From positions 8,190,001 through 8,222,000 of the forward strand of contig NZ_CP042911.1 in NCBI RefSeq assembly GCF_008065095.1: DNA of 32,000 nucleotides. The letters run 5' to 3'. Below are positions 1-29,233 of the stretch, piece by piece. The translations under genes and the position numbers were made by a program. The DNA is from Gemmata obscuriglobus. Lineage in GTDB: Bacteria; Planctomycetota; Planctomycetia; Gemmatales; Gemmataceae. Within the stretch, counting starts at the first letter, position 1; every line of letters begins with the position of its first letter. The notes beneath the pieces are model-generated. The model saw only the letters and a list, made by a program, of their open reading frames with translations, searched no databases and was not told the origin of the DNA.

Positions 1-831
1 ACGCTGTCCAGCGACCAACTCTCCGAGGAATACAACCGGGCGCGGGGCGAGTGGCTCGAACAGAACATGCTCATCGGTGAATACAACAAGCAGATTCAGT
101 CGTCGCCCCCCGAGGCCGACAAGCGACGGATCGAGGCCGACCGGTCGGTTGCGGAGGGTCGGCGCGATAAGGCGCGGGGCGACATGGAAGCCCTGGACCA
201 GCAGTACAACCGGGTCAGCACCGACCCGTCCGCGAAGGGCCAGGCGCACGGCCGCGGTCCCGGGTTCTTCCGGGCCAACGCCCCGGACTTCGGCTCGCTG
301 GCCCGCGCCGGCGGGGACCAGTGGACCGTCCTCAACAACGACAACCGCGAGAGCCTGCTCGGGCGCACCATGCGGCCCAACGAGGAGATGCTCCGGATCG
401 CCCACCTGGAAGGGCCGTGGCATCTCGAACTCAAGATCCCGCAGCGGAACGTGGGGCAGGTGCTACGGGCGTTCGCCGACCCGGCCCAGCACCTCACCGA
501 CCCCGACCGCGGCGGCCGCAAGTACCTCGAGGTGGACGTGATCCTGCGGAGCCAGGCTGCCACGCAGTACAAGGGCCGGCTGTACCGCGAGGACCTGATG
601 GCCGAGGCGGTGCCGAACAAGAACGAGCACGACGAGAACGAGCCCGTCGTGACCGCCTACGTCAAACTCAACATCGACGGCATTGATCCCGACAAGTGGA
701 TCCCGCGCGAGCAGTTGACGACTGGTCTGGAAGTGAACACCCGCATCCGGTGCGGCGACCACGCCCTCGGGTACACGCTGTTCCACGGCGTGTGGGAGTG
801 GTTCTACGAGAAGGTGATCTTCTTCTTCTAA
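1..831 (+). CDS. HlyD/membrane-fusion-protein-like periplasmic adaptor, C-terminal part (5' end outside window)
   Basis: Frame 1 is open from base 1, with no stop before the first listed Met at 67; stop at 829-831. A charged coiled-coil-like segment (EADKRRIEADRSVAEGRRDKARGDMEALDQQY) is followed by adaptor beta-barrel-type strands: WHLELKIPQRNVGQVLRAF, YKGRLYRED, VVTAYVKLN, GLEVNTRIRCG. GC3 is high. Confidence 0.6.
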   Translation, partial: TLSSDQLSEEYNRARGEWLEQNMLIGEYNKQIQSSPPEADKRRIEADRSVAEGRRDKARGDMEALDQQYNRVSTDPSAKGQAHGRGPGFFRANAPDFGSLARAGGDQWTVLNNDNRESLLGRTMRPNEEMLRIAHLEGPWHLELKIPQRNVGQVLRAFADPAQHLTDPDRGGRKYLEVDVILRSQAATQYKGRLYREDLMAEAVPNKNEHDENEPVVTAYVKLNIDGIDPDKWIPREQLTTGLEVNTRIRCGDHALGYTLFHGVWEWFYEKVIFFF

Positions 832-1000
832 CCGTTCCGGGTTCTAGACTCCGGGCTGAAGAGGGACGGCTTCGCGCTTCGACCCGGAGCGGAAGTCTGG
901 AACTCGCGACAACCCGCCTTCCGGCCCGACTGGCGAGCGCCAGGGCACCGGTGGCCCCAGGTCACAACCCCTTACGGTCCCAGTAAAAGAGGACAACGTC

Positions 1001-3073
1001 ATGCGTTCTCGCGTTCTCGCGTTCTCGCTCCTGTCGGCCGCGCTCGGCGGCCTACTCATCGGTTGTAGCCCCAAAAATACCAGTCCGGGCGGCAAAAACG
1101 GCCCCACGGACCCGCCGGCGCCGGTCGACCCCGGTAGCCCGCTCTGGGTCCCCGCGCCGCTGCCGGCCTCTGTCGCGGGCGTCGTCCGCGGCGAACCGCT
1201 GGTGGTTCCCAACTGCGTTGTCCAGTACGACGAGCGGCAGATCGTTTCGGCCGAGGTGGACGGCACCATTGAGCTTCTCGCCACGCCGTACACGCCGGGC
1301 GAACTGAAAGCTCTGATGGACGACCCGAAGCTCACCGAGCAGCAGAAGCGGGACCGCATCCTGTACCACCCGCGCGACACCGGGAACCCCAAGAAGCCGC
1401 TCAAGCGCATCCGCGAGAGCATGCCGGTTGAGGCGCGACAGATCGTCGCGTTCATGGACGACCAACTCGTCAGCGCCCGCATGGAGGGCGCGAAGCAGAT
1501 TAAAGACTCCGCGGTCAGCGCGAAGAAGAACTCGGAGGAGGGGGTCAAGGCGGCGGACGAGAAACTCCGCGTGACCGAGAAAACGATGGGGATCGCCGGC
1601 TCCCAGCGCGAGCGGCTCGACGACCTCATCACCCTGACGCGGTTCCGCGAGAACCAGGACCAAGCGGTCAGCCAGATCGCCAAGTCCGACGCGGACTACA
1701 AGGAAGCGGTGGTGCTGATGGGCCGGCACCAGATCCGGAGCGGGGTGAACGGCACCATCCGTACCATCGCCAAGCGGCCGGGCGAGTACGTGAAGGCCGG
1801 CGACAAGATCATGGAGATCGAGGGCACTGATAAGGTGCGGATCGAGGGCCAGCTCGACGTGCAGTACATCCGCGCGGTGCGGATCGGCATGGAGGTGATC
1901 GTCGAGCCGGCGCTGCCCAGCGCGCCGGAGGCGTCGCACAGCGGCCACCGGCAGGCGGTCACGGGGGTCACGGTCACCGCGCACCCCGACGGCCCGCTCG
2001 TCGTCTCGGTGGGGGCCGACGGCGCGGCCCTGGTGTGGGACCCGCCGCTGGCGAGCAAGAACGCGAACACCGCGGTGTCGGTGCCCCACAACCTGCCGCA
2101 CCCGGTCGGGGTGAAGAGCGTGGCGACCGCCACCGCCGCCGCCCGGACCGTGCTGGTCATCACCGGCGGCGACGACGGCAAGGTACGCGTGTGGGACGTG
2201 ACCAACCGCAAGCAGCTCCCGACCGCGCCGAAGGTGGTGGCCGAGGACGCGCACACGTCCGCGGTGCAGGCCATCGCGGTCAGCCCGGACGGCAAGTACT
2301 TCGCCACCGCCGCCGGCCGCGACGTGTTCGTGTGGGACCTGACCACCGTCAAAAAGATGTACGCGCTGCCGCTGGAGCACCGCGACTCGGTCACCGCGAT
2401 CAACTTCACCCCGCAGTGCACGCTGGTCACCGCCTCGAAGGACAACACCCTGAAGGTGTGGAAGGTTGGCGACAAGGGCGCGGCCGTGGCCCGCACCCTG
2501 GACCACCGGGCCGGTGCGGTCGACGTGCTGGGGGTGAGCAGCGACGGCGCCCGCGTGCTGTTCGACCAGGACAAGGGCCGGCTCGACCTCGTGGACCCGT
2601 CGAACGGGCAGACGGTGGGCCAGATCCAGAACATGGGCTCGGCCGGCGCGTTCTCGACGCTAGCGGTGTTCGAGCCCAACGCCGACGGCGCGAAGGGCGA
2701 CCCGAACCGGCCGCACCTCCTGGCGACCGCGGGCGGGGACGGCGACCTGAAGGGGACGGTGCAGGTGTGGCAGGCGCCGCGGAGCGGGCGCGGCTCGGAA
2801 GTCGGGCGGCTCATCACCCCGGGCCGGGTGCCGGTGACCACGGCCGCGTTCAGCCCGGTCCGCGGCGAGCGGTTCCTGGCTGTGGGCACCAGCAGCGGCG
2901 CGATCCACCTGTGGAAGCCGCCGTCCGAGGCCCGCAAGACTCACACCGGCCGCATCGTCAACATCGACGCCACCGACGCCCGGTACGTCACGGTGCGGGT
3001 GGAACTGGACAACCGCGAGCTGCAACTGATCGACCACAGCATCGCGAACGTGATCATCCCGTCCGACAAGTGA
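1001..3073 (+). CDS. Lipoprotein: HlyD-type adaptor with an internal seven-repeat WD40 beta-propeller
   Basis: ATG at 1001 is preceded by AGAGGA. Lipoprotein signal with lipobox LLIGC. Adaptor lipoyl halves are IVSAEVDGTIELL and IRSGVNGTIRTIAKRPGEYVKAGDKIMEI, separated by a long charged helical hairpin. Seven WD-like units end in VWD, VWDV, VWDL, KVWKV, LDLVD, VQVWQA and IHLWKP. The C-terminal strand TGRIVNIDATDARYVTVRVELDN...IANVIIP resembles the end of the adaptor barrel. Confidence 0.8.
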   Translation: MRSRVLAFSLLSAALGGLLIGCSPKNTSPGGKNGPTDPPAPVDPGSPLWVPAPLPASVAGVVRGEPLVVPNCVVQYDERQIVSAEVDGTIELLATPYTPGELKALMDDPKLTEQQKRDRILYHPRDTGNPKKPLKRIRESMPVEARQIVAFMDDQLVSARMEGAKQIKDSAVSAKKNSEEGVKAADEKLRVTEKTMGIAGSQRERLDDLITLTRFRENQDQAVSQIAKSDADYKEAVVLMGRHQIRSGVNGTIRTIAKRPGEYVKAGDKIMEIEGTDKVRIEGQLDVQYIRAVRIGMEVIVEPALPSAPEASHSGHRQAVTGVTVTAHPDGPLVVSVGADGAALVWDPPLASKNANTAVSVPHNLPHPVGVKSVATATAAARTVLVITGGDDGKVRVWDVTNRKQLPTAPKVVAEDAHTSAVQAIAVSPDGKYFATAAGRDVFVWDLTTVKKMYALPLEHRDSVTAINFTPQCTLVTASKDNTLKVWKVGDKGAAVARTLDHRAGAVDVLGVSSDGARVLFDQDKGRLDLVDPSNGQTVGQIQNMGSAGAFSTLAVFEPNADGAKGDPNRPHLLATAGGDGDLKGTVQVWQAPRSGRGSEVGRLITPGRVPVTTAAFSPVRGERFLAVGTSSGAIHLWKPPSEARKTHTGRIVNIDATDARYVTVRVELDNRELQLIDHSIANVIIPSDK

Positions 3074-3084
3074 CGGCGTGAGTG

Positions 3085-3122
3085 CCGGGCTCCGGCGGCC
3101 GACCCGGGCCGCCGGAGCCCGG
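3085..3122 (+). terminator. Intercistronic GC-rich stem-loop (possible attenuator, terminator or mRNA-stability element)
   Basis: Perfect inverted repeat CCGGGCTCCGGCGGCC (3085-3100) / GGCCGCCGGAGCCCGG (3107-3122) with a 6-nt loop. It starts 12 nt after the stop at 3073 and is followed by the pyrimidine-rich tract gtccgttgctccccctctttcc. There is no clean U-tract. Confidence 0.4.
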
Positions 3123-3164
3123 GTCCGTTGCTCCCCCTCTTTCCACTCACACCCGCACCGACCC

Positions 3165-5432
3165 ATGGCCAACGACCTCATCGCGAACCTGAACAACCCC
3201 GCCGAGCGCCGCAAGTCGGTGCGGCTGCGGGTGCGCCCCGACCTGCAGTCGTTCGAGCAAAAGTACGAAGGGAAGACGTTCACCGTCATCAAGGACCCGG
3301 TGTGCCTGCGGTACTACCGGTTCAGCCGGCAAGAGCACTTCGTGTTCGGCCTGTTCGACGGCAAGCACACGATGGAGGAGGTGCAGGAGGCGTTCGAGGA
3401 GGAGTTCAAGCCGATGCGGCTGGAACTCGCGGACCTGGAGGGGTTCGCCCGCCAGTTGGTGACCGCGGGGCTGGTGCAGAACGAGCAGCCCGGGGCCGCC
3501 CGGCACCTGTTCGAGCGCCGCGCCAAGCAGCGCCGCATGCGGCGGCTCGCCACGGTCAGCAACATCCTGTACCTGAAGATCCCGGTCTTCGACCCGGACC
3601 GGCTGCTCACGTGGATGTACGGCTACCTGCGGTGGGTCTTCACCGCCTGGTTCTTCGCGGCCAGCGTGGGGCTGATGCTCGCCGCGATCGTGCACGTGAC
3701 GCTCCACTACAACACGTTCCAGGCGAAGCTGCCCGCGTACCAGGAGTTCTTCACCTGGAACTCGGTGCTGTACATGTGGCTGTCGCTGGGCGTGGTGAAG
3801 GTGATCCACGAGTTCGGCCACGGGCTGAGCTGTAAGGCGTTCAAGGGCGAGTGCCACGAGATGGGCGTCTTGCTCATGTGCCTCTCGCCGGCGCTGTACG
3901 CGAACGTGACCGACGCGTGGACCCTGGCGGACAAATGGAAGCGGATCATCATCAGCTTCGCCGGCATCTACGTGGAGCTGGTGATCGCGTCGATCGCCAC
4001 GTTCGTGTGGTGGTACACGCCCGCGTACCCGACCGCCAACAACATCGCGCTGTGCATCATGGTGCTGTGCTCGGTGAGCACCGTCATGTTCAACGCCAAC
4101 CCGCTGATGCGGTTCGACGGGTACTACATGCTCGCGGACTGGCTGGAGGTGCCGAACCTGCGGGAGAAGGCGAACCGGTTCCTCAACAACCTGTTCCTGT
4201 CGAAGTGCCTGGGGGTGGACGTGCCGCCGGAGGCGTACATGGCCCCGTGGCGCAAGTGGCTGTTCGTCATCTACGCGGTGGGGAGCTGGGTGTACAAGTG
4301 GGTGGTGACGTTCAGCATCCTGTGGTTCCTGGCGGACTTCATGGGACCGAAACTGAAGGTGCTGAGCCAGATGCTGGCGCTCATGTCGCTGGCGTCGGTG
4401 TTCGTGTTTCCGACCTACAAGGTGATCAAGAACATCCGTCAACGGGGGCGGTTGCCAGACATGAAAGCGGCACGAGTTTACATCACGCTCGCCGTGTTCG
4501 CGGCGTTCGTGGCGGCGTTCTTCTTCCTGCCGCTGCCCGTGAGCCGGGTGCACGAAACGGGTTTGGTCGCGATCGACCCGGAGCACCTCGAAGGGGTCAT
4601 GCTGTCCGAGCCGGCGCGGCTGGTGAAGCTGGAGGGCGCGAGCCCCGGGCAGGCGGTGCGCAAGGGGCAACTCCTGGGCACCTTTGAGAGCACGGCGCTG
4701 GAGATCGAACTGGCCAAGGCGAAAGCGGCGCGGGCGACCCAGCAGCAGACGGCCGACATGCTGAACAAGAAGGTGCTCAAGGCCCAAGGCGCCGGCGACG
4801 CCGCGAACGAGCAGCGGTTCCTGAACGAGTACGTGCGGGCCAAGGCGCAGGCCGACACCGCCGAACGGGACGTGGCCCGCCTGCTGAAGCGCCAGATCGG
4901 GGTGCGGGAGCTGCGGGCCACGCGCGACGGGACGCTCATCACCGCCCCCAAGCGCGACGAGATCGGCAAGCTGTTCGACAAGGGGTACACCGAAACGACC
5001 CCGGTGTTCTCGGTCGGCGACCCGCTGAAGCTGGTGCTCAAAGTGCCGGTGACGCCCTACGACTATCGCTTGCTCAAGGAGGACCTGACGGCGCGCAGCG
5101 AGCTGGACGTGTCGGTGTGCGTGAAGGGCCGAAGCGACCGCACATTCAGCGGCAAGGTCCACCGCGACAAGCTGCCGGCCCAGAACGCGGCGACGATACC
5201 GCTGGCCCTGAGCCAGCGGGGCGGCGGCTCGCTGGCGGTGAAGCCGAACGAAGACCCGAACCTGCTGGCGCCGCTCGCACAGGTATACCTGGTCGAGGTC
5301 GAAATGACCGACCCGGACACCGCGATCGACCCGGGGCAGCTCGTGAGCGTGAAGATCCACTCGCGGTGGCGGAGCGGGGCGTGGTGGGTGGCCCGAGAAC
5401 TGTCCAACGCGCTCGACATTGGTCTGTATTGA
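3165..5432 (+). CDS. Peptidase M50 (site-2-protease-like) membrane metalloprotease fused to a C-terminal HlyD-type adaptor domain
   Basis: HEFGH zinc motif at 3807-3821. Second M50 motif NANPLMRFDG at 4092-4121. Several hydrophobic helices surround both motifs. The C-terminal third has adaptor features: a coiled coil (LEIELAKAKAARATQQQTADMLNKK...), then LRATRDGTLITAP, LKLVLKVPVTPYDYRLL and IDPGQLVSVKI. I prefer the ATG at 3165 (MANDLIANL) over the listed start at 3078, which would run through the hairpin and almost abut the upstream stop. Confidence 0.8.
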   Translation: MANDLIANLNNPAERRKSVRLRVRPDLQSFEQKYEGKTFTVIKDPVCLRYYRFSRQEHFVFGLFDGKHTMEEVQEAFEEEFKPMRLELADLEGFARQLVTAGLVQNEQPGAARHLFERRAKQRRMRRLATVSNILYLKIPVFDPDRLLTWMYGYLRWVFTAWFFAASVGLMLAAIVHVTLHYNTFQAKLPAYQEFFTWNSVLYMWLSLGVVKVIHEFGHGLSCKAFKGECHEMGVLLMCLSPALYANVTDAWTLADKWKRIIISFAGIYVELVIASIATFVWWYTPAYPTANNIALCIMVLCSVSTVMFNANPLMRFDGYYMLADWLEVPNLREKANRFLNNLFLSKCLGVDVPPEAYMAPWRKWLFVIYAVGSWVYKWVVTFSILWFLADFMGPKLKVLSQMLALMSLASVFVFPTYKVIKNIRQRGRLPDMKAARVYITLAVFAAFVAAFFFLPLPVSRVHETGLVAIDPEHLEGVMLSEPARLVKLEGASPGQAVRKGQLLGTFESTALEIELAKAKAARATQQQTADMLNKKVLKAQGAGDAANEQRFLNEYVRAKAQADTAERDVARLLKRQIGVRELRATRDGTLITAPKRDEIGKLFDKGYTETTPVFSVGDPLKLVLKVPVTPYDYRLLKEDLTARSELDVSVCVKGRSDRTFSGKVHRDKLPAQNAATIPLALSQRGGGSLAVKPNEDPNLLAPLAQVYLVEVEMTDPDTAIDPGQLVSVKIHSRWRSGAWWVARELSNALDIGLY

Positions 5433-5449
5433 GATTGATAAAGAAGGTT

Positions 5450-5574
5450 GGCCACAAAAAAGCACAAAGGGCACAAAAGAAGACAGAAGACGAGGACGAA
5501 GAGAAGTGTTTTGAACTCACTCTTCTGTCTTTGCCTTTGGTTTCCTTTTGTGCCCTTTGTGCTTTTTTGCGGCC
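5450..5574. terminator. Long AT-rich imperfect hairpin between convergent genes (putative bidirectional terminator)
   Basis: Left arm GGCCACAAAAAAGCACAAAGGGCACAAAAG (5450-5479) pairs with CTTTTGTGCCCTTTGTGCTTTTTTGCGGCC (5545-5574) at 29 of 30 positions. Pairing continues inward (AAGACAGAAGA 5480-5490 with TCTTCTGTCTT 5521-5531). An extra partial arm copy lies at 5582-5602. U-rich tracts flank it on both strands. It sits between the stops at 5432 (+) and 5621 (-). Confidence 0.55.
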
Positions 5575-5620
5575 AATCTCTCTTCCGTCTTCTTTTGTGG
5601 CCAATCTCTTCCCAGGTCTC

Positions 5621-11911: not shown

Positions 11912-13636
11912 TCAAAACTCCATCTCGCGGAGCGATTTCGCCCCCGCGCGGAGCGGCAGCACCGCCGCCGCCGCGCCCAGAACCAGCCCCACCGGGATGC
12001 CCGCGTACACCCACGGGTTGATTTTGGCCGCCCCCGCGGTCGCGCCCTTCGCGAGCTGGGCCACGTGGAACGGCACCACCATCACGCCGATGACGGCGAC
12101 CAGGAACGCGAGCCCGGTCACCATGTTCACGGTGCCGCCGAACCCGACCACGATCTTCGACGGGTCCGTCTCGCGGAACGTCGGTAGGTACGCGCCCAGG
12201 CCCACGTTCAGCGCGCTCAGCCCCAGGGCCGCCACCGCCACCGCCACGGCGTGCAGCGCCAGCCCTTCGAGCGGCAGCCCGAGGAGCGCGTCGCTGGTCA
12301 GGATGAGCGCCTCGGCCACGACCAGCGACCCGGTCGCCGCGAACGCGAACTTGCCCCACAGGATCTGGTCGCGGCTCACCGGGGTGAGCCCCAGGATCCA
12401 GAACTTCCGCCCCTCCAGCGAGATCAGCGGGAACACGAACCGGCTCAGCCCGGCGCACAGGAGGATCGCCGTCCCGCTCAGGTTCATGAGGCTAATGGCG
12501 TACTTGTCCATGATGCCGAGGTCGGCGGAGTAGTACTGCCGGAAGTTGCTGGCCCCGATCAGCATCAGCACGCCGAAGATGGCCAGCACGGCCCACTGGG
12601 TCGGGTCGCGCCGGAAGGTGCGAAAGTCCTTCACCACCAGCACGCGCGTCCGGCGGTCGAGGTAGCACACCAGCGCCTCCATGAGCCGGTCGAGCGGGCT
12701 CGTCTTGTAGACCTTCTTGTCGCGCCCGAAGGCGGAGAGGCGGTCGTAGGCGGTGCGGTACACGCGCTTCGCGACCCACGCCGCGCCCAGGAAGCACAGC
12801 AGCCCGTTGCTCCACACCTGGGCCAGCGGGACGAGCGCGGCGGCGAGGTCCCCGCGGGCCGCGGCCATCACGCCGCGGGTCATCCAGTGGCTCGGCGAGA
12901 ACCCGCTGCGGAGCAGGTCGAACTGGCCGATCAGGTCGTCCAGCTCCCGCCCGCTGCTCACCAGCGACCGGCGGAACCCCACGAGAATTCGGTAACCCCA
13001 GAACAGCAGCCCGGCGGCGACCACGAGCCCCACGAGCGCGAAGAACTGCTTGCGGTTCCGCGGCATGTACCGCACCAGCAGGAGGCACCCCGCGGCCGAC
13101 ACCGAGCCCGGCAGGATGACGTACCCGAGCAGGTACAGCGGCAGCAGCGGGTAGAAGTACCACGGCACGCCGGACATGAGCCCGTAGGCCACGAAGATGG
13201 GCACGCCGAGGATCACGAAACCCCACGAGCTGAACGTTACCGCGGCCTGGAACTTGGTGACGAAGATCTGGTCGGCGCGGGCCGGCGAGCACAGCAAGAA
13301 CCGCGCCTCGGGGCTGGTGAACAGGCTTGCATAGAGGATGATGCCGGTCGAGAAGATGAGCATCGTCCCGAGCGTGAAGAACAGCAGCTCGAAGAGCGCC
13401 TCGACGATGGCCCCCTTGAACGGGATGTTGTTCACCCGGAGCTGGTTGAACAGGTACAGGCTGACCGCGAACGTGAACGCCGCGACCACGGCGCTGGTGG
13501 CGATCATGGTGACGAGCCGCACGCGGCCGTTCTCGAGCGCGACGCGCAGCCCGTTGCGGAACAGTTGCAGCCGCAGGCGCCGGAACAGGGCCGCTTGCGC
13601 GGGCGCCGCCGGCCGGGCGTCGATGGTTGGGGACAT
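11912..13636 (-). CDS. ABC-2 / putative ABC-exporter type polytopic permease
   Basis: ATG at 13636 (MSPTIDARP...). About 12 hydrophobic helices in two halves. It lies 41 nt downstream of the ABC ATPase gene. The listed 861-aa ORF continues upstream only by reading out of frame across the ATPase gene. Confidence 0.75.
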   Translation of the reverse strand: MSPTIDARPAAPAQAALFRRLRLQLFRNGLRVALENGRVRLVTMIATSAVVAAFTFAVSLYLFNQLRVNNIPFKGAIVEALFELLFFTLGTMLIFSTGIILYASLFTSPEARFLLCSPARADQIFVTKFQAAVTFSSWGFVILGVPIFVAYGLMSGVPWYFYPLLPLYLLGYVILPGSVSAAGCLLLVRYMPRNRKQFFALVGLVVAAGLLFWGYRILVGFRRSLVSSGRELDDLIGQFDLLRSGFSPSHWMTRGVMAAARGDLAAALVPLAQVWSNGLLCFLGAAWVAKRVYRTAYDRLSAFGRDKKVYKTSPLDRLMEALVCYLDRRTRVLVVKDFRTFRRDPTQWAVLAIFGVLMLIGASNFRQYYSADLGIMDKYAISLMNLSGTAILLCAGLSRFVFPLISLEGRKFWILGLTPVSRDQILWGKFAFAATGSLVVAEALILTSDALLGLPLEGLALHAVAVAVAALGLSALNVGLGAYLPTFRETDPSKIVVGFGGTVNMVTGLAFLVAVIGVMVVPFHVAQLAKGATAGAAKINPWVYAGIPVGLVLGAAAAVLPLRAGAKSLREMEF

Positions 13637-13677
13637 GGGCCACCAGTGGGTGTGAGGGGCGGGCCGGGTCAGACGCG

Positions 13678-14427
13678 CTACGCGAGGGGCAGCGCCGGCT
13701 GCGGCGCGTCTTCCTCGGTGATCTTCATGAACAGGTCTTCCAGGCTGCCGTCCATCGCGGCCTGTTTGCGCAGGTCGGTCAGTGTGCCGCACCCGAGGAG
13801 CGTGCCGCGGTCCAGAATCCCGATGCGGTCGGCGAGCTCCTGGGCGATGTCGAGCGTGTGCGTGCTGAGGAACACCGTCATCCCCTCGGCCGCGAGCCGG
13901 CGGAGCAGCGTTTTCAGCTCGCGGATGCTCTTCGGGTCGAGCCCCACGGTCGGTTCGTCGGCGATGAGCAGCTTGGGCTCGTGCACCAGCGCCGCGGCGA
14001 ACACGGTGCGCTGGCGCATCCCGTGCGAGTACCGCTCGGTGAGGTCGTCCACGAACTCGTTGAGGTGGAACAGCTCGATCACCTCCTCGATCTTGTCCGC
14101 GGACCGGCCCGGGGGCATTCCGTACAGGTCCGCGGTGAACTGGAGGAACTCGCGGCCGGTGAGCTTCTCGTACAGGAACGGCTGGTCGGGGACGTAGCTG
14201 ACGAGCGCGCGGGCCTGGTCGCCCTGGGCGCGCACGTCGAACCCGCCGATGCGGACGCTCCCCGTGGTGGGGAACAGGAGCCCGCAGAGCATCTTGATGG
14301 TGGTGGTCTTCCCGGCCCCGTTCGGCCCCAGGAACGCGAACAGTTCGCCCGCGGGCACGTGCAGGGTAAGATCCCGCACCGCGACCTTCGGGCCGTAGAG
14401 CTTCGTGACGGTGTCGATTTGGATCAT
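13678..14427 (-). CDS. ABC transporter ATP-binding protein
   Basis: Start MIQIDTVTKLYG at the ATG at 14427. Walker A GPNGAGKTT, signature-like YSHGMRQR, Walker B LLIADEPTVGLD, H-loop LSTH. Confidence 0.9.
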   Translation of the reverse strand: MIQIDTVTKLYGPKVAVRDLTLHVPAGELFAFLGPNGAGKTTTIKMLCGLLFPTTGSVRIGGFDVRAQGDQARALVSYVPDQPFLYEKLTGREFLQFTADLYGMPPGRSADKIEEVIELFHLNEFVDDLTERYSHGMRQRTVFAAALVHEPKLLIADEPTVGLDPKSIRELKTLLRRLAAEGMTVFLSTHTLDIAQELADRIGILDRGTLLGCGTLTDLRKQAAMDGSLEDLFMKITEEDAPQPALPLA

Positions 14428-14446
14428 GGTAAACTCGCTCCGAAGA

Positions 14447-14477
14447 CCCACCCCCACCCCTCCTAAAGGGAGGGGAG
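14447..14477. repeat. G/C-homopolymer palindromic element, solo unit (copy C)
   Basis: CCCACCCCCACCCCTCCTAAAGGGAGGGGAG resembles the left unit of copies A and B. It lies in the 66-nt gap between the DUF559 stop (14494) and the ABC ATPase start (14427). Confidence 0.65.
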
Positions 14478-14493
14478 CGAGACAGGCGGGCAC

Positions 14494-14880
14494 TCATCCG
14501 GCCGGTGATCCCGTAGCTGCTGCGATGCGTTCCGCACAGGCCGCGGCGATGCGATCAAGGACGGTCGTGATGCTCTCGGTCACATTTTCGTTGCGGAACC
14601 GCAGGACAAGCAGGCCGAGCATGGCGAACGCCTGATCGCGAGCCGCGTCGTACTCGACCTGGGTGTCGTGAACGCCGCCGTCCACCTCGACAACGACGCC
14701 GGCGGCGTGGCAGTAGAAATCGGCGACGAACCCGTGAACGATCTGCTGGCGGCGGAAATGGAGGCCGTTTAATTTCGACGCACGGAGGTGCGACCACAGG
14801 ACTTGTTCGGCCGGAGTCATTTCGCGGCGGAGCCGGTACGCGAGTTCGCGCTTGGCCGGATCAACGGCTTGTCCGGTCAC
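14494..14880 (-). CDS. DUF559 (Vsr-like) endonuclease domain protein
   Basis: Family-typical AKRELAYRLRREMTPAEQVLWSHLR...GLHFRRQQIVHGFVADFYCHAAGVVVEVDGGVHD...RD...LGLLVLRFRNENV. I prefer the GTG at 14880 because it retains the conserved ARxLRR helix (alternative ATG at 14820). The listed start at 15162 reads through repeat copy B. Confidence 0.75.
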   Translation of the reverse strand: MTGQAVDPAKRELAYRLRREMTPAEQVLWSHLRASKLNGLHFRRQQIVHGFVADFYCHAAGVVVEVDGGVHDTQVEYDAARDQAFAMLGLLVLRFRNENVTESITTVLDRIAAACAERIAAATGSPAG

Positions 14881-14911
14881 GAGGTGCGGCACGGGCGGGC
14901 GGCGCGAAGAA

Positions 14912-15132
14912 CCTACCCCCCCGGCCCCCCTCCCTAAAGGGAAGGGGGAGTCCGGTTGGCTCGCCTCCTGCGCACCGGACTCGCTATCGGCGCACGAAGG
15001 TTCATACTCACCTTCTGCCCCGGGAAGGGTGGGACGCGTCGCACCTGCTTCTGGCGCGCCAGGTTTGCTATCGGTGCACGAAGGTTCGATCTCCCCCCTT
15101 CCCTTTAGGGAGGGGGGGCCGGGGGGGGTAGG
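14912..15132. repeat. G/C-homopolymer palindromic element, composite copy B
   Basis: CCTACCCCCCCGGCCCCCCTCCCTAAAGGGAAGGGGGAG (14912-14950) is a near-perfect reverse complement of CTCCCCCCTTCCCTTTAGGGAGGGGGGGCCGGGGGGGGTAGG (15091-15132). An internal direct repeat (GCTATCGGCGCACGAAGGTTCATACTCACC and GCTATCGGTGCACGAAGGTTCGATCTCCCC) marks an extra degenerate unit. Confidence 0.85.
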
Positions 15133-15165
15133 TCTTGGCGCCCGGGGCTTGCGTGCACACATCCC

Positions 15166-17422: not shown

Positions 17423-17908
17423 ATGTCCGACCTCGCCCGACAGCTCTTCGGCGCGGACGCGCCGCCCAAACGGCTGGCGCTGATCGTCGATCTTGACGAC
17501 ACGGTCTGCACCAGTTTCGCGTGCCCGCTGCGTGCGGCGCTCGACGTGCTCGCGCGCCTCCACCGACAGAAGGTCGAAGTTCACTACGTCACAGCCCGTA
17601 CCGACGTGAGCCGCCGCGGGACGGAGGACTTCCTGGCGGAGTACCGCCTGCCGGGCTACCGCAACGTCCACTACTGCCCCAACTGGAAAAGCCCCCGGCG
17701 CCACAAAGCCGAGGCCCACGCGACCCTCGCCCGCGAGTACCGGGTGATCGCCAGCATCGGCGACACCGACGAGGAGGAGGGCGAGGCAGCGCGGCTCGCG
17801 GGCGTGCCGTTCGTGCTGGTCGACCGCGACAACCCGTCCACAGCCTGGGCGGCGCTCGCGGATCTGATCCTCGCCGCCGAGGGGTTCATTGTTGAGGAGA
17901 GTTCGTGA
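17423..17908 (+). CDS. HAD-superfamily phosphatase-like protein
   Basis: HAD motif I LIVDLDDTV (DxDxT), motif II YVTART, motif IV IGDTDEEEG. I prefer the ATG at 17423 over the TTG at 17378. Confidence 0.65.
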   Translation: MSDLARQLFGADAPPKRLALIVDLDDTVCTSFACPLRAALDVLARLHRQKVEVHYVTARTDVSRRGTEDFLAEYRLPGYRNVHYCPNWKSPRRHKAEAHATLAREYRVIASIGDTDEEEGEAARLAGVPFVLVDRDNPSTAWAALADLILAAEGFIVEESS

Positions 17909-18747
17909 GCGAAGCCCCGCAACGCTCACTCTGGCGCCGGGCGCGCCGGTGGGCCGTGCTCTTCCTGATCACCTACCTGGGGATCGTCATCGTGTTCTGG
18001 TTCCTCGAACGGCGGCTCGTCTTCGTCCCCACATCGACCCAGGAGGAGTGGCTGGAACCCGAAGACCGCCGCTCGCAAGATGTGTCGTTCGACTCGGCCG
18101 ACGGAAACAAAATCGCGGGGCGCTGGATTCCGCCGGAGACGCCGCACCACGGGGCCGTGCTGGTCGCGAACGGCAACGGCGGCAACCTCACACACCGCGG
18201 CGGGCTCGCGGCCGATTTGCGCCTGGCGACCGGCGCCGGGGTGCTGCTCTTCGACTACCCCGGTTACGGGAAGAGCAGTGGCACACCCTCCGAAAACGGG
18301 TGCTACGCGGCCGGCGAAGCCGCGTACAAGTGGCTCACAGACGAGCAGAAGGTCGCCACGAGCCGCATCATTCTGTACGGCGAATCGCTTGGCGGCGGAA
18401 CCGCGGTCGAACTGGCTACGAAGCGCGAGCACCGGGCGCTCGTTCTCATCTATACCTTTACCAGTCTGCCCGACGCCGCAAAGAACCGCTTCCCGTTCCT
18501 GCCGGCGAAAACGCTGATGCGCACCCGGTTCGACAACCTGTCCAAAATCGCGAAGTGCCCGCGACCGGTGTTCTTCGTTCACGGCAGGGCCGATACGGTG
18601 GTGCCGTTCAGCCACTCGGAGCAGCTCTACGTCGCGGCCAACCAGCCGAAGGAGTTCGTGCGACTCGACGGCATCGGGCATGTGCGGCTGCCCGGCGAAC
18701 TGTACCTGCCGGCGCTGGTATCGTTCCTGAACCGACACGCCCCCTGA
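17905..18747 (+). CDS. Alpha/beta hydrolase with N-terminal membrane anchor
   Basis: The GTG start overlaps the upstream stop (GTGA). TM helix WAVLFLITYLGIVIVFWFL. Nucleophile elbow GESLGGG. Acid and His regions VHGRADTVVPF and GIGH. Confidence 0.75.
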   Translation: MSEAPQRSLWRRARRWAVLFLITYLGIVIVFWFLERRLVFVPTSTQEEWLEPEDRRSQDVSFDSADGNKIAGRWIPPETPHHGAVLVANGNGGNLTHRGGLAADLRLATGAGVLLFDYPGYGKSSGTPSENGCYAAGEAAYKWLTDEQKVATSRIILYGESLGGGTAVELATKREHRALVLIYTFTSLPDAAKNRFPFLPAKTLMRTRFDNLSKIAKCPRPVFFVHGRADTVVPFSHSEQLYVAANQPKEFVRLDGIGHVRLPGELYLPALVSFLNRHAP

Positions 18748-19773: not shown

Positions 19774-20872
19774 GGCAGGCCATTCACGATGGGGGGCGCC
19801 TTTGTTTTGGTTGCCGCTTTGCGACTGACAGGTCTCTTTTTCGTCAGCTAATAACCGAGCAGTCGATACATGTTTTCTCGTGTATTCTATGCGCTCGAGT
19901 TTATTTTTTGTGGGCATTCGCGCGGGTGCTTTTTTAACCTTGTTCAGGTTAATCTTCTCGGCCCAGGCGCGCAGCAGTTGGTCCAGTTCGGCGCCCGACA
20001 TGGTTCCGAACGCGGCCCATTCGGTGGGCGGGAGGGCGATCATCATGCCCGTGTACACGGTCGCCAACTCGAGGGCCATGTAGTACCCGGGCACCTGGCT
20101 CGCGACCACATCCGCCCCATGTACCGCCCGCCTCGCGGCCTTGAGCACCGCCAGCACGTTGTACCCACCACTTCCACCGCGAACCCGAACAGCGCGGCCT
20201 TCGGATACCCGCGTGTGTTCACCTCGCACCGCCGCGCCACGGTCAACTCGTGGAACGCGCCTTCGATGGCCACCGACCCCGATACAGGACCGCCACCACC
20301 GCCGCGACCGCCTCGTCCTCCGGCACGTCGGCCAGGATCTCGATCTCCGCGTCCCCGTCTCCGGTCGGATGGTCCAACCGCACCCGCACGCAGCGCACCC
20401 GCGGCACCGGCTCCCCGCCCACGCACACCCACACCGGTCGCTCGCTCACCCACCCGGTATCGGTGCGCACTTCCGGGGTCCATTCCCCGGCCGGGTCGAG
20501 TGTGGTGGTCCCGTGTCGGCGGATCGCGAAGAACGCATCGTGGCACCGATCCGCCACATGCCGCACCAGCTCCGCCGACACCGCCGCCTCGATGTTCTGC
20601 AGCTTCTCGTACACCGACTTCAGGGAGGCCGGGATCCGATCGGCCATCTGCTGATACGCCGACTGCACATGATGCGCCTTGCCGCACACCACCGCACCCA
20701 TCAGCTCCACCACCGTGGAGAACAGCAGCTCTCGCGTGTACACGCGCTCCGCCACCCGCGCGAACAGCGCGTCCAGGGCCGAAGCCGATAGCACGTGCTC
20801 GATGCTGGCCCGTGACATGACGTTCAACGGGCTCTCGCTAATGAACCGCTCGAGCACCGCGCCAAGAATCAT
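19774..20872 (-). pseudogene. IS4-family transposase, disrupted by at least two frameshifts
   Basis: Frame 1 (20872-20243) ends ...AVLYRGRW. The motif continues in another frame as (A)IEGAFHELTVARRCEVNTRGYPKAALFGFAV, near 20265-20175. A third frame then carries GYNVLAVLKAARRAVHGADVVASQVPGYYMALELATVY...AEKINLNKVKK. YRGRW-x-IE is the Y-x2-R-x3-E signature of IS4-type DDE transposases. Confidence 0.65.
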
Positions 20873-20952
20873 GAGGCCGCCCGTCCATAGAGCGCACTAA
20901 TCGTTCCCTGGAAACACCTTGCAATTACGGACGGCACCGTGAATGGCCTGCC
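19774..20952 (-). mobile_element. Decayed IS4-like (DDE, YREK-type) insertion sequence
   Basis: Terminal inverted repeats GGCAGGCCATTCACGATG (19774-19791) and CACCGTGAATGGCCTGCC (20935-20952) match at 17 of 18 positions. They enclose a frameshifted transposase reading frame. The 3' portion is lower in GC. No clear target-site duplication was seen. Confidence 0.6.
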
Positions 20953-21024
20953 TCGGGTGCCTCGTCGGCTTGTACCTCGCAATTGGCGGCTCCACGTTCC
21001 TCGACTTTCAGGCGCTTTTCGGCC

Positions 21025-21052: not shown

Positions 21053-21269
21053 CCTTCGTCCGCACGTCTACATCGACCTTGCGGTCCTTATCGTTGGCTC
21101 CCTTTCCGCGCCCCTGAATGTCAACATCCGCGCCGGGCGTGCGAATGCGGATATCGGTTTCTTTTTCGCGTGCAGCAGGGGGCGTGCTCGGCGCCGGTCG
21201 CTCACACCCAACGAGCATAACGAGCGCAAAGGTAGCGGCAGTTAGAACCGTGGCGCGAACCGGCTTCAT
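21045..21269 (-). CDS. Small lipoprotein (74 aa)
   Basis: ATG at 21269 with AGGAG 7 nt upstream. Signal plus lipobox MKPVRATVLTAATFALVMLVGC. Charged repetitive mature part (DIRIRTPGADVDIQGRGKGANDKDRKVDVDVRTKDR). Confidence 0.65.
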   Translation of the reverse strand: MKPVRATVLTAATFALVMLVGCERPAPSTPPAAREKETDIRIRTPGADVDIQGRGKGANDKDRKVDVDVRTKDR

Positions 21270-21414
21270 TTGTGGCTCCTGCATATCGATGCGTTCTCAA
21301 AACGATGGCCCCCCGGCCACGACTGCAACCGGCGCGCCGAACCAACTGGGGTTCACTTTCGCCCCGCCAGAACGCGATACTAAATGCGTCGCCTTCTGTG
21401 CCCGCAGGTTCTCA

Positions 21415-23610
21415 ATGTCACGCATCCGCCAACTGCCACCCGACGTCGTCAACAAGATCGCCGCGGGCGAGGTGATCGAGCGCCCCGCGTCCGTCGTCAA
21501 GGAACTGCTGGAGAACTCCATCGACGCCGGCGCCACCCGCATCGACATCGACCTCGACGCCGGCGGCACCGAACTCATTCGCGTCGTCGACGACGGGTGC
21601 GGGATCGACCCGGACGACCTCGCGCTGGCGTTCTCGCAGCACGCCACCAGCAAGCTCACCACCGCCGACGACCTGTTTCAGATCCGCACGATGGGGTTCC
21701 GCGGCGAGGCGCTCGCGTCGATCTCGGGCGTCGGGCAAATAACGCTCCAGTCGCGCACGCACACGGCCGCGAGCGGGTGCGAGGTGAAATGCGACGGCAA
21801 CGGGATCTCCGACCCGCGCCCGTGGAACGGCGCCCCGGGGACGCGCATGGAGGTGCGGCACCTGTTCTACAACGTGCCGGTGCGCAAGAAGTTCCTCAAG
21901 AGCGTCGCCACCGAACTCGGGCACGTGTGCGAAACGGTCACGCGCCTCGCGCTCGCGCACCCCGCGCTCCACATCACGCTGCGGCACAACAACCGGCTCG
22001 TGTACGACATCCCCGGCAGCGCCGGCCTCCTGGACCGCATCGCGCTGTTCTTCACCGGCGAGGTGCGCGACGCCCTCTACGAGATCGATTCCGGCGACGG
22101 CCCCATGCGGCTCCGGGGCTACATCGCGGACCCGAAGTGCGACCGCGGCAACTCGAAGCTCCAGTACCTGTTCGTGAACGGCCGCTGGTTCCGCGACCGG
22201 AGCCTGTCGCACGCCCTTCAAGAGTCGTACCGCGGGCTGCTGATGGCGGGCCGGTACACGATCGGCTTCTTGTTCCTCACGCTCCCGCCCGACAAGCTCG
22301 ACGTGAACGTTCACCCGACGAAGTCCGAGGTGCGGTTCCAGGAGAACTCGCTGGTTTACTCGCTCGTGCGGGCCACCATCAAGCAGCGGCTGCTGAAAGA
22401 GAACCTCATCCCGCACCTGACGGTCCCGCAGGGCATTGAGGACGGCGCGCTCGCCGAGGAGCCGGAGCCGAAGATTGAAACGCCGTCGCTGTTCACTTCG
22501 CCGCGGCGCGAGCTGGCGGAGCAGACCCTCGCGCCCTGGGAACTCGGGGCGGCTGCGGACCCGTTCTGGCGCACGCCCGCTGGCGTTCAGGTGCGCGAGG
22601 CACCCGCGGCGCGAGAAGCGGAGCCGGTTCGCACCAGCACGCCGGTCCGGCCGGCGTCATCGTCATCGTTCGGGCCGTCACTGTTCACATCGCGCGTGAC
22701 GGAGCCGCCCTCACGCCCGGTTCCGCCGCCGTCACGCGCAGCGGTTGTCGAAGCGCCAAGCGAAAGACCTGCGGCTCTCACCTCCTCCCCCTTTGAAGAG
22801 CAAGAAGAATCTGAGCCGTCCCCCGTTGACCGCTCTGAAGAAGAGGAGAACACAGACATCGCGCCGAGCGAGTTCGACGCGCAAATCGCGTCCGAAGCGC
22901 CTCCGGCCCCCGCTCGCCAATTTGTGAGCGCTCCGCCGATGGAGCAGATTAGCCCCGGGGAGCCGCAAGAAAGCACACCGGCTCCCGCGCCACCAGCGCC
23001 AGCGAGCACCGCGCCGCCCGTTGCGGGCGCGCCGGCCGGTTCCAGTTCTGCGATTCAGCTTCACGACTCGTACCTCGTGCTCGAAACGCCCGACGGAATG
23101 CTGGTCATTGACCAGCACGCGCTGCACGAGCGCATCCTGTTCGAGCAGCTCCGCCGGCGCATCCGCGCGGGCCAACTCGAGGTGCAGCGGCTCCTGATCC
23201 CCGAGCCTGTCGACTTGCCCGCCGAGCAGGCCGCGCTCGTACTGGAGTGCGCCGACGCGCTCGCCGAACTGGGGCTGGACGTGTCCGATTTCGGCGGCAA
23301 CACGATCCTGCTATCGAGTTACCCCACACTGCTGGGACGCAAACCCCCGCACGTCATCTTGCGCGGGGTGATCGATCACATCGTCACGCAGGAGCGAGCC
23401 CCCACAAAGGAAGCGCTCCTCCACCTGCTGATGGCGACGATGGCGTGTAAGGCCGCGGTGAAGGCCGGTGACAAGCTCTCACCGGAGGAGATCACGTATC
23501 TCCTCCGACTGCGCGAGATGGCCGAGGACAGTCACCACTGCCCGCACGGGCGCCCGACATCACTCCTCTTCAGCCGCGCCGAACTGGACAAGCAGTTCCG
23601 GCGCACGTGA
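21415..23610 (+). CDS. mutL: DNA mismatch repair protein MutL (endonuclease type)
   Basis: GHKL N-terminus MSRIRQLPPDVVNKIAAGEVIERPASVVKELLENSIDAGA. C-terminal endonuclease motif DQHALHERILFE at 23110-23145, plus ACKAAVKAGD and CPHGRP. Long Pro/Glu/Ser-rich linker. The listed start at 21118 overlaps the divergent lipoprotein gene. Confidence 0.92.
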   Translation: MSRIRQLPPDVVNKIAAGEVIERPASVVKELLENSIDAGATRIDIDLDAGGTELIRVVDDGCGIDPDDLALAFSQHATSKLTTADDLFQIRTMGFRGEALASISGVGQITLQSRTHTAASGCEVKCDGNGISDPRPWNGAPGTRMEVRHLFYNVPVRKKFLKSVATELGHVCETVTRLALAHPALHITLRHNNRLVYDIPGSAGLLDRIALFFTGEVRDALYEIDSGDGPMRLRGYIADPKCDRGNSKLQYLFVNGRWFRDRSLSHALQESYRGLLMAGRYTIGFLFLTLPPDKLDVNVHPTKSEVRFQENSLVYSLVRATIKQRLLKENLIPHLTVPQGIEDGALAEEPEPKIETPSLFTSPRRELAEQTLAPWELGAAADPFWRTPAGVQVREAPAAREAEPVRTSTPVRPASSSSFGPSLFTSRVTEPPSRPVPPPSRAAVVEAPSERPAALTSSPFEEQEESEPSPVDRSEEEENTDIAPSEFDAQIASEAPPAPARQFVSAPPMEQISPGEPQESTPAPAPPAPASTAPPVAGAPAGSSSAIQLHDSYLVLETPDGMLVIDQHALHERILFEQLRRRIRAGQLEVQRLLIPEPVDLPAEQAALVLECADALAELGLDVSDFGGNTILLSSYPTLLGRKPPHVILRGVIDHIVTQERAPTKEALLHLLMATMACKAAVKAGDKLSPEEITYLLRLREMAEDSHHCPHGRPTSLLFSRAELDKQFRRT

Positions 23611-23714
23611 GTCCCTGCTCCAGCGACGGTCGCGGCTCGTGTAACGGGCGGGTGGGCTTCCGGGCGGCGTTCGGTTACACTCAACCGGACGCCGCCCCGA
23701 GGAATCCACTCGCT

Positions 23715-26782: not shown

Positions 26783-26874
26783 CACGGACTCGTGCCTCTC
26801 CCGCCTGCTTGCGACCGGATGGTTCTCCCGCCACTGACCCGAATGCGATTCGGGTTCCTGCCGAGCTGAAACCT

Positions 26875-29160: not shown

Positions 29161-29233
29161 GAGCTGCGGGGGTCGTCGGGTGGGCACCGCCCACCGCCCC
29201 GCGAGTACGGACGCAACTCAAGCGGGTGACGGA

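Follow-up and report, generated by a model that had tools for sequence, protein, structure and literature searches.

A three-gene membrane fusion protein unit with a fused M50 protease in Gemmata obscuriglobus: possible core of a pump-less, leader-dependent apparatus for protein export and processing

Architecture of the three-gene locus

The window analysed here is a 32,000-nucleotide (nt) stretch of Gemmata obscuriglobus DNA (contig NZ_CP042911.1, positions 8,190,001 to 8,222,000) with a G+C content of about 66%. At its left end three genes follow one another on the + strand, referred to here as genes 1, 2 and 3, and the products of all three contain regions related to HlyD-type periplasmic adaptors, also called membrane fusion proteins (MFPs). 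The product of gene 3 joins its MFP domain to an intramembrane M50 metalloprotease and to a domain that resembles PqqD and the recognition elements (RREs) of peptides that are made by the ribosome and modified after translation (RiPPs). The architecture of this trio, its conservation and its possible function are the subject of this work. The features of the locus are given below with the basis on which each was assigned (aa, amino acids; ORF, open reading frame; AF2, AlphaFold2).

1..831, + strand: 3' part of gene 1 (aa 462-737); ORF open at the left edge and its translation
1001..3073, + strand: gene 2, a 690-aa lipoprotein-type HlyD/MFP adaptor; Pfam HlyD_3 and HlyD_D23
1913..2950, + strand: WD40 beta-propeller within gene 2 (aa ~305-650); Pfam WD40 and alignment boundaries
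3084..3122, + strand: GC-rich hairpin (16-bp stem) within the 91 nt that separate gene 2 from gene 3; RNA fold
3165..5432, + strand: gene 3, a 755-aa fusion of an RRE/PqqD-like domain, an M50 protease and an MFP; Pfam, NCBIfam, AF2 and profiles
3222..3494, + strand: putative RRE/PqqD-like winged-helix domain of gene 3 (aa ~20-110); PqqD match below cut-off, weak profile matches and AF2
3636..4532, + strand: M50 core and trailing transmembrane helices of gene 3 (aa ~158-456); Pfam M50, motifs, hydrophobicity and AF2
4533..5429, + strand: periplasmic MFP domain of gene 3 (aa 457-755); Foldseek, PDB profile search and RND_mfp
5440..5585, no strand: 146-nt near-perfect hairpin between gene 3 and a GT2 gene; inverted repeat and fold

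The three ORFs are called identically in public contigs and are present as reported in a preliminary description of this DNA, which had recognised three HlyD/MFP-type genes in these positions. Its assignment of a WD40 propeller to the second adaptor and of the sole polytopic membrane domain of the cluster to the M50 protease fused in gene 3 agrees with our analysis. It had counted two of the genes as carrying unusual fusions, and we find extra domains in all three. It had also placed a convergent terminator at the end of the array. A strong hairpin is indeed located there (5440-5585), with 53-nt arms that are 83% complementary and a folding energy of -85.5 kcal/mol (z -12.0); however, it is not a canonical T-tailed terminator, which a simple terminator scan did not find after gene 3. 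This hairpin is A+T-rich relative to the 66% G+C genome and occurs as a single copy in the window. It probably closes the operon, as a bidirectional terminator or else as a palindromic element of a mobile or regulatory kind. The smaller hairpin between genes 2 and 3 (-54.2 kcal/mol, z -4.9) may be an intercistronic element for processing, stability or attenuation.

The full length of gene 1 was recovered from L001 (positions 1455-3668), an 8.3-kb contig found by looking up exact matches to the gene 2 protein; it shares sequence with the window and extends it upstream by 2.8 kb. The complete protein is 737 aa long and is composed of a cytoplasmic GAF-like region, one predicted transmembrane (TM) segment (aa 397-415) and a periplasmic HlyD-like coiled coil and barrel. 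Pfam recognises the GAF domain at 25.1 bits against a cut-off of 22.4, in residues 219-365, a part encoded on L001 and outside the window. Partial gene 1 as present in the window gives no Pfam or NCBIfam hidden Markov model (HMM) match of its own, and the matches of the full-length protein to the HlyD and RND_mfp models of these databases are below their thresholds.

Gene 2 begins with a lipobox (LLIGC, aa 20-23) and matches WD40 (96.9 bits), HlyD_3 (43.2 bits) and HlyD_D23 (33.1 bits) of Pfam, all above the cut-offs. The adaptor is built from an N-terminal part (aa ~60-305) and C-terminal barrel strands (aa ~651-690), and PF00400 matches in four stretches between residues ~311 and ~640, where many other propeller families match as well. 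In an alignment with orthologues of ~310 aa, the propeller is seen to be cleanly inserted between two strands' positions in the beta-barrel of the MFP.

The protease of gene 3 is recognised by the Peptidase_M50 model of Pfam (PF02163) at 32.8 bits against a cut-off of 27.2. Both sequence signatures of M50 proteases, HExxH and the NPxxxxDG motif with the third zinc ligand, are present, as HEFGH at residues 215-219 (nt 3807-3821) and NPLMRFDG at residues 312-319 (nt 4098-4121). Residues H215, E216, H219, N310, N312, P313 and D318 are invariant across 42 diverse homologues, and the catalytic motifs of gene 3 are intact. Over residues 39-413 the protein aligns with nearly the whole of NF041824, the model of daptide RRE-intramembrane metalloproteases, at 172.7 bits (cut-off 300), and it scores 46.7 bits on NF058609, the model of the YydH/LiaK epipeptide metalloproteases (cut-off 225). 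None of the other daptide cluster genes (precursor, decarboxylase, aminotransferase, methyltransferase) was found in the window or in related loci.

The N-terminal domain of gene 3 scores 15.5 bits on Pfam PqqD, below the cut-off of 23.4, and the first 100 positions of the family profile give weak but specific matches to the RRE of TfuB1 (6jx3, E 0.009) and to PqqD (3g2b, E 0.01). RefSeq labels relatives of gene 3 as 'PqqD family'. In the AF2 model (pLDDT 88.4, pTM 0.76) an N-terminal beta-sheet followed by three helices, an arrangement compatible with an RRE, precedes a helical membrane core and a C-terminal MFP. The latter consists of a lipoyl/barrel-sandwich domain, a long alpha-hairpin (aa 510-577) and a beta-barrel, and residues 495-664 match the RND_mfp model of NCBIfam. 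Foldseek relates this C-terminal domain to MexA, ZneB, MacA, AcrA and EmrA (E 1e-12 to 1e-9). The family profile finds the MacA-MexA chimera 4dk1 (5.7e-19) and EmrA (5.1e-16) in the PDB; a search with the single sequence gives a marginal match to MacA alone, and the profile is needed for more. The RRE-like domain and, foremost, the M50 core are the best-conserved parts of the protein.

Conservation of the trio and absence of a transporter gene

Since adaptors of the HlyD family usually have an ATP-binding cassette (ABC), resistance-nodulation-division (RND) or major facilitator superfamily (MFS) transporter beside them, the preliminary description had remarked that no transporter was in view and had allowed that a pump or substrate gene might be found just upstream of the left edge. 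With the 2.8 kb of upstream DNA from L001 there is still no transporter, and the chief case that would have refuted its interpretation, a standard pump directly upstream in the operon, does not arise. Besides gene 1, this DNA holds just a 122-aa ORF and a divergent acyl-ACP/phospholipid acyltransferase gene, and it contains no ABC, RND or MFS gene. The 122-aa ORF (L001 915-1283) is located directly before gene 1, ~2.0 kb upstream of the first base of the window, and has no Pfam or NCBIfam family match. It is kept in Gemmataceae-like lineages (10 sequences with 28 invariant columns and 60% mean column identity) and is probably a fourth member of the operon. The order of acyltransferase (- strand), small ORF and genes 1-2-3 is common to Frigoriglobus tundricola (CP053452) and a 10.1-Mb Gemmataceae genome (LR593886), in both of which gene 3 is followed by GT2, CapK-like and epimerase genes, all on the - strand. 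An ABC, RND or MFS pump was found neither in the extended operon nor in the rest of the window nor in these two loci.

Judged by their size, an 861-aa and a 222-aa ORF of the window might be taken for a cognate pump of the MacB type. This assignment was rejected, as the two belong to PF16949 and DUF559, lie 6.5 kb away on the opposite strand and are not conserved beside the trio. They occupy 11912-15162 (- strand), where the PF16949 'ABC_tran_2' gene (415 bits) is followed, with a 4-nt coding overlap, by the DUF559 gene with its Vsr-like endonuclease fold, and the pair resembles a two-gene nucleic-acid or defence-type module unrelated to the adaptor trio. Further along the window, MutL (21118-23610) shares a 4-nt overlap with a PQQ_2/BamB-like propeller gene (23607-25781), and a typical planctomycete PSCyt1-PSCyt2-PSD1 (DUF1549/DUF1553) gene at 26809-31151 (+ strand) has a DUF1501 gene further downstream, also on the + strand.

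When each species was represented by a single genome, a scan yielded at least 512 confirmed gene 3 loci; counts out of 80 given in this work refer to the best 80 of them. Most of these 80 are labelled Planctomycetota (Gemmataceae, Pirellulales, Planctomycetales and Thermoguttaceae), the exceptions being two labelled Candidatus Kuenenia and one each labelled Bacteroidales, Alcaligenaceae and unclassified. Gene 1 is present upstream on the same strand in 48 of the 58 loci with enough upstream DNA. In an all-against-all clustering of the flanking ORFs of the 80 loci, the sole conserved genes were gene 1, seen in 57 loci, and the middle adaptor, seen in 51 + 13; no ABC, RND, MFS or outer membrane factor (OMF) gene was conserved. 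The three genes thus do travel together in related genomes; a lack of such co-occurrence, which the preliminary description had named as grounds for giving up its interpretation, is not seen.

The middle gene, to which gene 2 is orthologous and which occupies the same position in other Planctomycetota, encodes a secreted HlyD protein of ~310 aa in all ten loci tested with Pfam. A WD40-bearing form occurs in 13 of the 80 loci, every one of them Gemmataceae-like. As judged from these sequences, the WD40 insertion is restricted to Gemmataceae-like lineages, and we propose that the propeller is a lineage-specific interaction module with a predicted location in the periplasm.

The closest relatives of gene 3 are found in the Gemmataceae, namely in a metagenome-assembled genome (MAG) of Frigoriglobus (92% identity over aa 1-352), in Gemmata sp. 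(84%) and in F. tundricola (80%), and identity inside this family is 67-90%. At E <= 1e-30 the gene 3 family comprises 3,812 clusters at 50% identity, most of which keep the architecture of 730-760 aa. RefSeq names its members 'HlyD family efflux transporter periplasmic adaptor subunit', and the misleading names 'efflux adaptor', 'PqqD chaperone' and 'site-2 protease' are routinely given to the family.

Two further genes recur near the trio in part of the 80 loci. A gene for a DUF3467 protein is present within 10 kb in 19 of them, where it directly follows gene 3 or lies upstream of gene 1. Within the same distance, 11 loci have a SecA-like gene encoding ~660 aa; in Pirellulales it is located upstream of gene 1, whereas two Gemmataceae-like loci have it downstream of gene 3. 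The 122-aa ORF, which shares the position of DUF3467, was considered as its analogue and rejected (hhalign probability 0.1%). The most complete planctomycete arrangement is seen in a Bremerella sp. MAG (L034 4496-14000), in which the SecA paralogue, the gene 1 homologue, HlyD, M50-HlyD and DUF3467 are followed directly by an ORF of >1,000 aa with the motif LESRQLL at its N-terminus.

Paralogous M50-HlyD subtypes were also encountered. One is preceded by a DUF481 outer-membrane beta-barrel, a pairing which fits an envelope-spanning role, and another by a HEAT-repeat protein and HlyD (subtype loci: L065 8869-9999, L083 9166-9978, L049 785-1960, L059 7704-9971 and L071 2865-5107). Two copies of the system may be present in a single MAG (L033 with L047; L072 with L080).

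Alphaproteobacterial clusters, the SecA paralogue and the LEPR-XLL motif

Full-length homologues of gene 3 are also present in Alphaproteobacteria, as found by tblastn against annotated plasmids and chromids; the homology of gene 3 with proteobacterial proteins over the full length has E values of 2e-65 and 3e-60. They are located in clusters of the following composition, listed in gene order.

Thalassospira marina: LEPR-XLL protein (12.1-kb gene), DUF3467, long adaptor (622 aa), M50-MFP (730 aa), short adaptor, TolC
Pontibrevibacter: LEPR-XLL protein (31.8-kb gene), DUF3467, long adaptor, M50-MFP, 'DEAD/DEAH helicase', short adaptor
Methylosinus: 26.5-kb gene, DUF3467, long adaptor, M50-MFP, 'prepilin peptidase', short adaptor, TolC
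Pseudosulfitobacter: 38.8-kb LEPR-XLL gene, followed by the same set
Mesorhizobium ciceri: a very similar set, beside a 31.6-kb Ig-like gene
Rhodobacteraceae M382: long adaptor, M50-MFP, 'SecA'
Azospirillum and Magnetospirillum: large repeat protein, TolC, two adaptors, M50-MFP

The giant genes of these clusters are 12-39 kb long and three of the five are annotated as LEPR-XLL. TolC is part of four sampled clusters (Thalassospira, Methylosinus, Azospirillum and Magnetospirillum). The cluster genes are contiguous and leave no space for a pump; a type I secretion system (T1SS) is placed nearby in Phyllobacterium alone, as a separate and divergent unit. The adjacent ABC, RND or MFS transporter with which members of the HlyD/MFP family work is missing from the trio in the window, in the 80 loci and in the proteobacterial clusters.

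Homology with these clusters extends to all three genes of the trio. The gene 1 family aligns with the proteobacterial long RND/HlyD adaptors at an hhalign probability of 100% (E 7.9e-39, 528 columns), and the alignment spans the cytoplasmic domain, the TM segment and the MFP part. The annotated long adaptors so aligned score 81-84 bits on RND_mfp. The planctomycete middle adaptor matches the proteobacterial short adaptors (E 2e-9). Because gene 1, the middle adaptor and gene 3 are each homologous to cluster genes, the trio of the window is, by sequence homology, the counterpart of three of the about seven genes of the alphaproteobacterial cluster.

The SecA-like gene encodes a truncated paralogue of SecA, 640-675 aa in length in the proteobacterial clusters. 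Among its proteobacterial members identity is 47-52%, and with the planctomycete paralogue they share 41-46% (E down to 1e-152); identity through the Gemmataceae is 69-82%. It scores 585-678 bits on SecA models and 453-625 bits on SecA2 models, below all of their cut-offs. Judging from these comparisons, the genes that RefSeq calls 'prepilin peptidase' or 'DEAD/DEAH box helicase' beside M50-HlyD are this SecA paralogue, systematically mis-annotated (mis-named examples: L093 11222-13138, L095 12041-14065, L089 9106-11091 and L096 11102-13063). In the cultured species Limnoglobus roseus (L098 10001-13568) the SecA paralogue overlaps by 11 nt a 504-aa gene that matches no family of Pfam. A PQQ_2 beta-propeller gene comes next, and this may be a further partner.

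The giant proteins of the alphaproteobacterial clusters begin with a basic stretch followed by (V/D)EP(I/M)EPR(I/V)LLSADP, have no hydrophobic core in this region and score 27.5 bits on the LEPR-8K model of NCBIfam (cut-off 17). Similar N-termini occur in planctomycetes. The planctomycete loci (1.3 Mb) contain five long ORFs in which a basic N-terminus is followed by LE[PDTS]RxLL; two of them are subtilases, and one is the ORF behind DUF3467 in L034. Long ORFs show an excess of the motif at their N-termini, where 5 of 16 matches fall in 3.7% of the sequence space (p 2e-4). Subtilisin-like proteases at L042 ~20105-21013 (- strand) and L061 ~17622-18554 (- strand) have highly basic N-termini with LEDRRLL or LETRNLL and no hydrophobic signal-peptide core, and such N-termini are candidate non-Sec export signals.

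Possible function and comparison with known systems

Taking these comparisons together, we somewhat favour the interpretation that the trio forms the inner-membrane and periplasmic core of a pump-less, leader-dependent apparatus for protein export and processing. Gene 3 would be the central inner-membrane component. Its cytoplasmic RRE/PqqD-like domain would dock the N-terminal leader of a substrate, and its M50 site in the membrane would remove this leader at the cytoplasmic face. We propose this docking and removal because the RRE-fused site-2 proteases to which gene 3 is related are the leader peptidases of daptides: MpaP, which takes off the leader peptide, represents a class of RRE-dependent intramembrane leader peptidases (bioRxiv 10.1101/2023.03.08.531785). 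The C-terminal MFP domain of gene 3 would join the periplasmic conduit, and the MFP domains of genes 1, 2 and 3 would build a hetero-oligomeric periplasmic tube that receives the polypeptide.

If the alphaproteobacterial clusters are a guide, the small DUF3467 protein and the SecA paralogue would also belong to the complete machine. The latter, a dedicated paralogue, is the likely ATPase motor, which would push the polypeptide towards an outer-membrane exit in the form of a barrel, of the TolC type or another. Gene 1 might use its GAF-like domain to dock the motor or DUF3467, or the domain might have a regulatory role. As substrates we envisage surface or secreted proteins of very large size that would have a basic N-terminus and a LEPR-XLL-type motif and no Sec signal peptide. 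In G. obscuriglobus the accessory and substrate genes would lie elsewhere than in the window.

The idea of the preliminary description that the adaptors are organised around an intramembrane protease rather than a pump gains support from the pump-free trio, as far as the sequences can tell, and from the alphaproteobacterial clusters, in which TolC and no pump is found beside giant genes for secreted proteins. Its suggestion that a peptide or protein is processed and released holds up for export and processing as such; however, a large protein with an N-terminal leader is a more likely substrate than a small peptide.

A bolder version of this proposal, which we put forward tentatively and hold to be rather less than an even chance, is that the trio is the core of an unrecognised type of secretion system. 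Such a system would combine an RRE-guided site-2 protease gate, a SecA-paralogue motor, an MFP tube and a TolC-type or other exit, and would handle giant or large proteins that carry an N-terminal LEPR-XLL-type signal instead of a Sec signal. It would serve as a phylum-wide general route in Planctomycetota, to which the Gemmataceae have added a periplasmic WD40 module. We found no published description of such a system in the literature, and neither a review of tripartite pumps (PMC8277102) nor a survey of polymorphic toxins (PMC3482391) mentions one. If the proposal is true, MFP/TolC-type conduits are not confined to ABC, RND and MFS pumps and can also assemble around an intramembrane protease, probably with a SecA paralogue as well. 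It would then explain how proteins of 4,000-12,000 residues with the hitherto unexplained LEPR-XLL N-terminal motif leave the cell, and likewise the many large planctomycete exoproteins that have no normal signal peptide. Correct assignment of the gene 3 family and of the SecA paralogue would re-annotate thousands of genomes.

Several observations weigh against an export apparatus of this kind. At the level of sequence, support for the RRE is weak (E ~0.01). The proteobacterial sample amounts to about ten annotated contexts and is not a census, and clusters of the Azospirillum and Magnetospirillum type have TolC and adaptors and no SecA paralogue, so that either the source of energy differs among these systems or the link to SecA is dispensable. 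A tblastn search (E 1e-4) found no TolC homologue near the 80 planctomycete trios; a gene with a weak Pfam match to OEP is located ~9 kb downstream of the trio in F. tundricola. SecA-like, DUF3467, TolC and LE[PD]RxLL-motif ORFs are all missing from the 32-kb window, and no SecA paralogue, DUF3467, TolC or LEPR-type ORF was found within 10 kb of the trio in F. tundricola or LR593886. In L. roseus (CP042425) the SecA paralogue lies elsewhere in the genome and not beside the trio. The planctomycete motif ORFs remain below the cut-off of the LEPR-8K model (best score 13.9 against 17; the others have no match).

An alternative would be an envelope scaffold or quality-control device, for instance of the unusual planctomycete envelope, in which the adaptors form a scaffold or tether across the periplasm, the WD40 propeller serves for interactions and the protease removes membrane proteins that are jammed or misfolded. 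The phylum-wide conservation and high identity of the trio suggest a housekeeping role, and the operon adjoins envelope genes (GT2, CapK-like, epimerase, lipid acyltransferase), although these are not conserved as neighbours outside the Gemmataceae. The pairing of the paralogues with a DUF481 outer-membrane barrel or a HEAT-repeat protein would suit a scaffold as well. Such a device would leave unexplained why an RRE of the leader-binding type is present and why the linkage to the SecA paralogue, DUF3467 and giant proteins is seen in two phyla, and we therefore regard it as unlikely.

Export of a small peptide, similar to a RiPP or bacteriocin, is improbable in our view. The RRE-M50 part would here cut the leader as in daptides and YydF, and the adaptor ring would pass the peptide outside. 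The best HMM matches of the N-terminal 413 residues of gene 3 are indeed RiPP leader peptidases, and the RRE-like domain fits such a function; both scores, however, are far under their cut-offs. The conserved 122-aa ORF before the operon in Gemmataceae might be taken for a precursor, but it is well conserved and lineage-restricted, unlike a hypervariable precursor. Across the 80 loci no modification enzymes, short precursor family or ABC exporter are conserved. The phylum-wide conservation of the trio at housekeeping-like identity (67-90% within the family) also speaks against this possibility, as do the proteobacterial homologues, which adjoin genes of 12-39 kb and not peptide genes.

M50 or site-2 proteases such as RseP and SpoIVFB classically serve regulated intramembrane proteolysis. 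By analogy, gene 3 might cleave a membrane regulator, for example an anti-sigma factor, with the status of the envelope sensed via the adaptors, the WD40 propeller and the GAF domain, the last being a common sensor module. We give this possibility little credence. No sigma factor, anti-sigma factor or transcription factor gene is conserved beside the trio, signalling proteases of this class bear PDZ or CBS domains and not an RRE and an MFP, and the proteobacterial links to TolC, the SecA paralogue and giant secreted proteins indicate transport. The signalling gate that had been offered as an alternative in the preliminary description gains no support. Ordinary tripartite efflux, or a T1SS whose ABC, RND or MFS pump is encoded elsewhere, would account for the canonical MFP folds and for the efflux-adaptor annotation of homologues in RefSeq, but is very improbable, since no pump adjoins the trio in 80 planctomycete loci or in contiguous proteobacterial clusters with TolC, and since the place of the pump would be filled by the cytoplasmic or membrane domains to which two of the three adaptors are joined.

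Compared with known systems, the proposed export and processing apparatus shares features with several of them. Like the site-2 proteases RseP, SpoIVFB and Eep/RasP, gene 3 has the M50 fold and catalytic motifs; unlike them, it has no PDZ or CBS domain and no sigma or anti-sigma context, and an RRE and an MFP are fused to it instead. Its RRE-like domain joined to a site-2-type M50 core with HExxH is shared with the RiPP leader peptidases (MpaP of daptides; YydH/LiaK). Gene 3 differs from these in lying under both of their cut-offs and in its extra MFP domain of ~300 aa, and the trio is a phylum-wide, housekeeping-like unit which lacks RiPP precursor, tailoring and ABC genes.

The SecA paralogue recalls the accessory SecA2 proteins (the SecA2-SecY2 system of Gram-positives and mycobacterial SecA2), which are likewise second SecA paralogues devoted to a subset of substrates, often very large adhesins. 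The linked paralogue is, however, shorter (~660 aa), scores under every SecA and SecA2 cut-off and has no SecY2 or Asp genes beside it. In diderms its genomic links are to an M50 protease, MFPs and TolC, and it is absent from the window.

With the tripartite MFP exporters (HlyB-HlyD-TolC, MacAB-TolC and EmrAB-TolC) the trio has in common the lipoyl/barrel-sandwich, alpha-hairpin and beta-barrel fold of the adaptors. The homologous proteobacterial clusters include a channel of the TolC family and adjoin giant adhesin-like genes, comparable to the T1SS substrates of the LapA and SiiE type. In contrast to these exporters, the trio has no ABC, RND or MFS protein, its inner-membrane partner being an RRE-M50 protease covalently fused to an adaptor, and it contains three different adaptors in place of one. 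The candidate signal (LEPR-XLL) is N-terminal and not C-terminal, and the candidate motor is a SecA paralogue. The ABC transporter that defines a T1SS is missing from the trio, and the candidate substrates in relatives carry the N-terminal LEPR-XLL motif.

Peptidase-containing ABC transporters (PCATs) couple cleavage of a leader at the cytoplasmic face to export through an MFP/TolC conduit. The proposed recognition and cleavage of a leader by gene 3 would resemble that of PCATs working with HlyD-type adaptors (CvaAB-TolC, ComAB and the LahT type). In PCATs a C39 cysteine protease is part of the ABC pump, whereas here an M50 metalloprotease is part of the adaptor and ABC domains are absent. Taken as a whole, we rate the trio as belonging among the MFP-dependent envelope-spanning exporters, and by analogy its apparatus would work most like a T1SS or a PCAT-CvaA-TolC exporter, in which leader cleavage is coupled to an MFP/TolC conduit.

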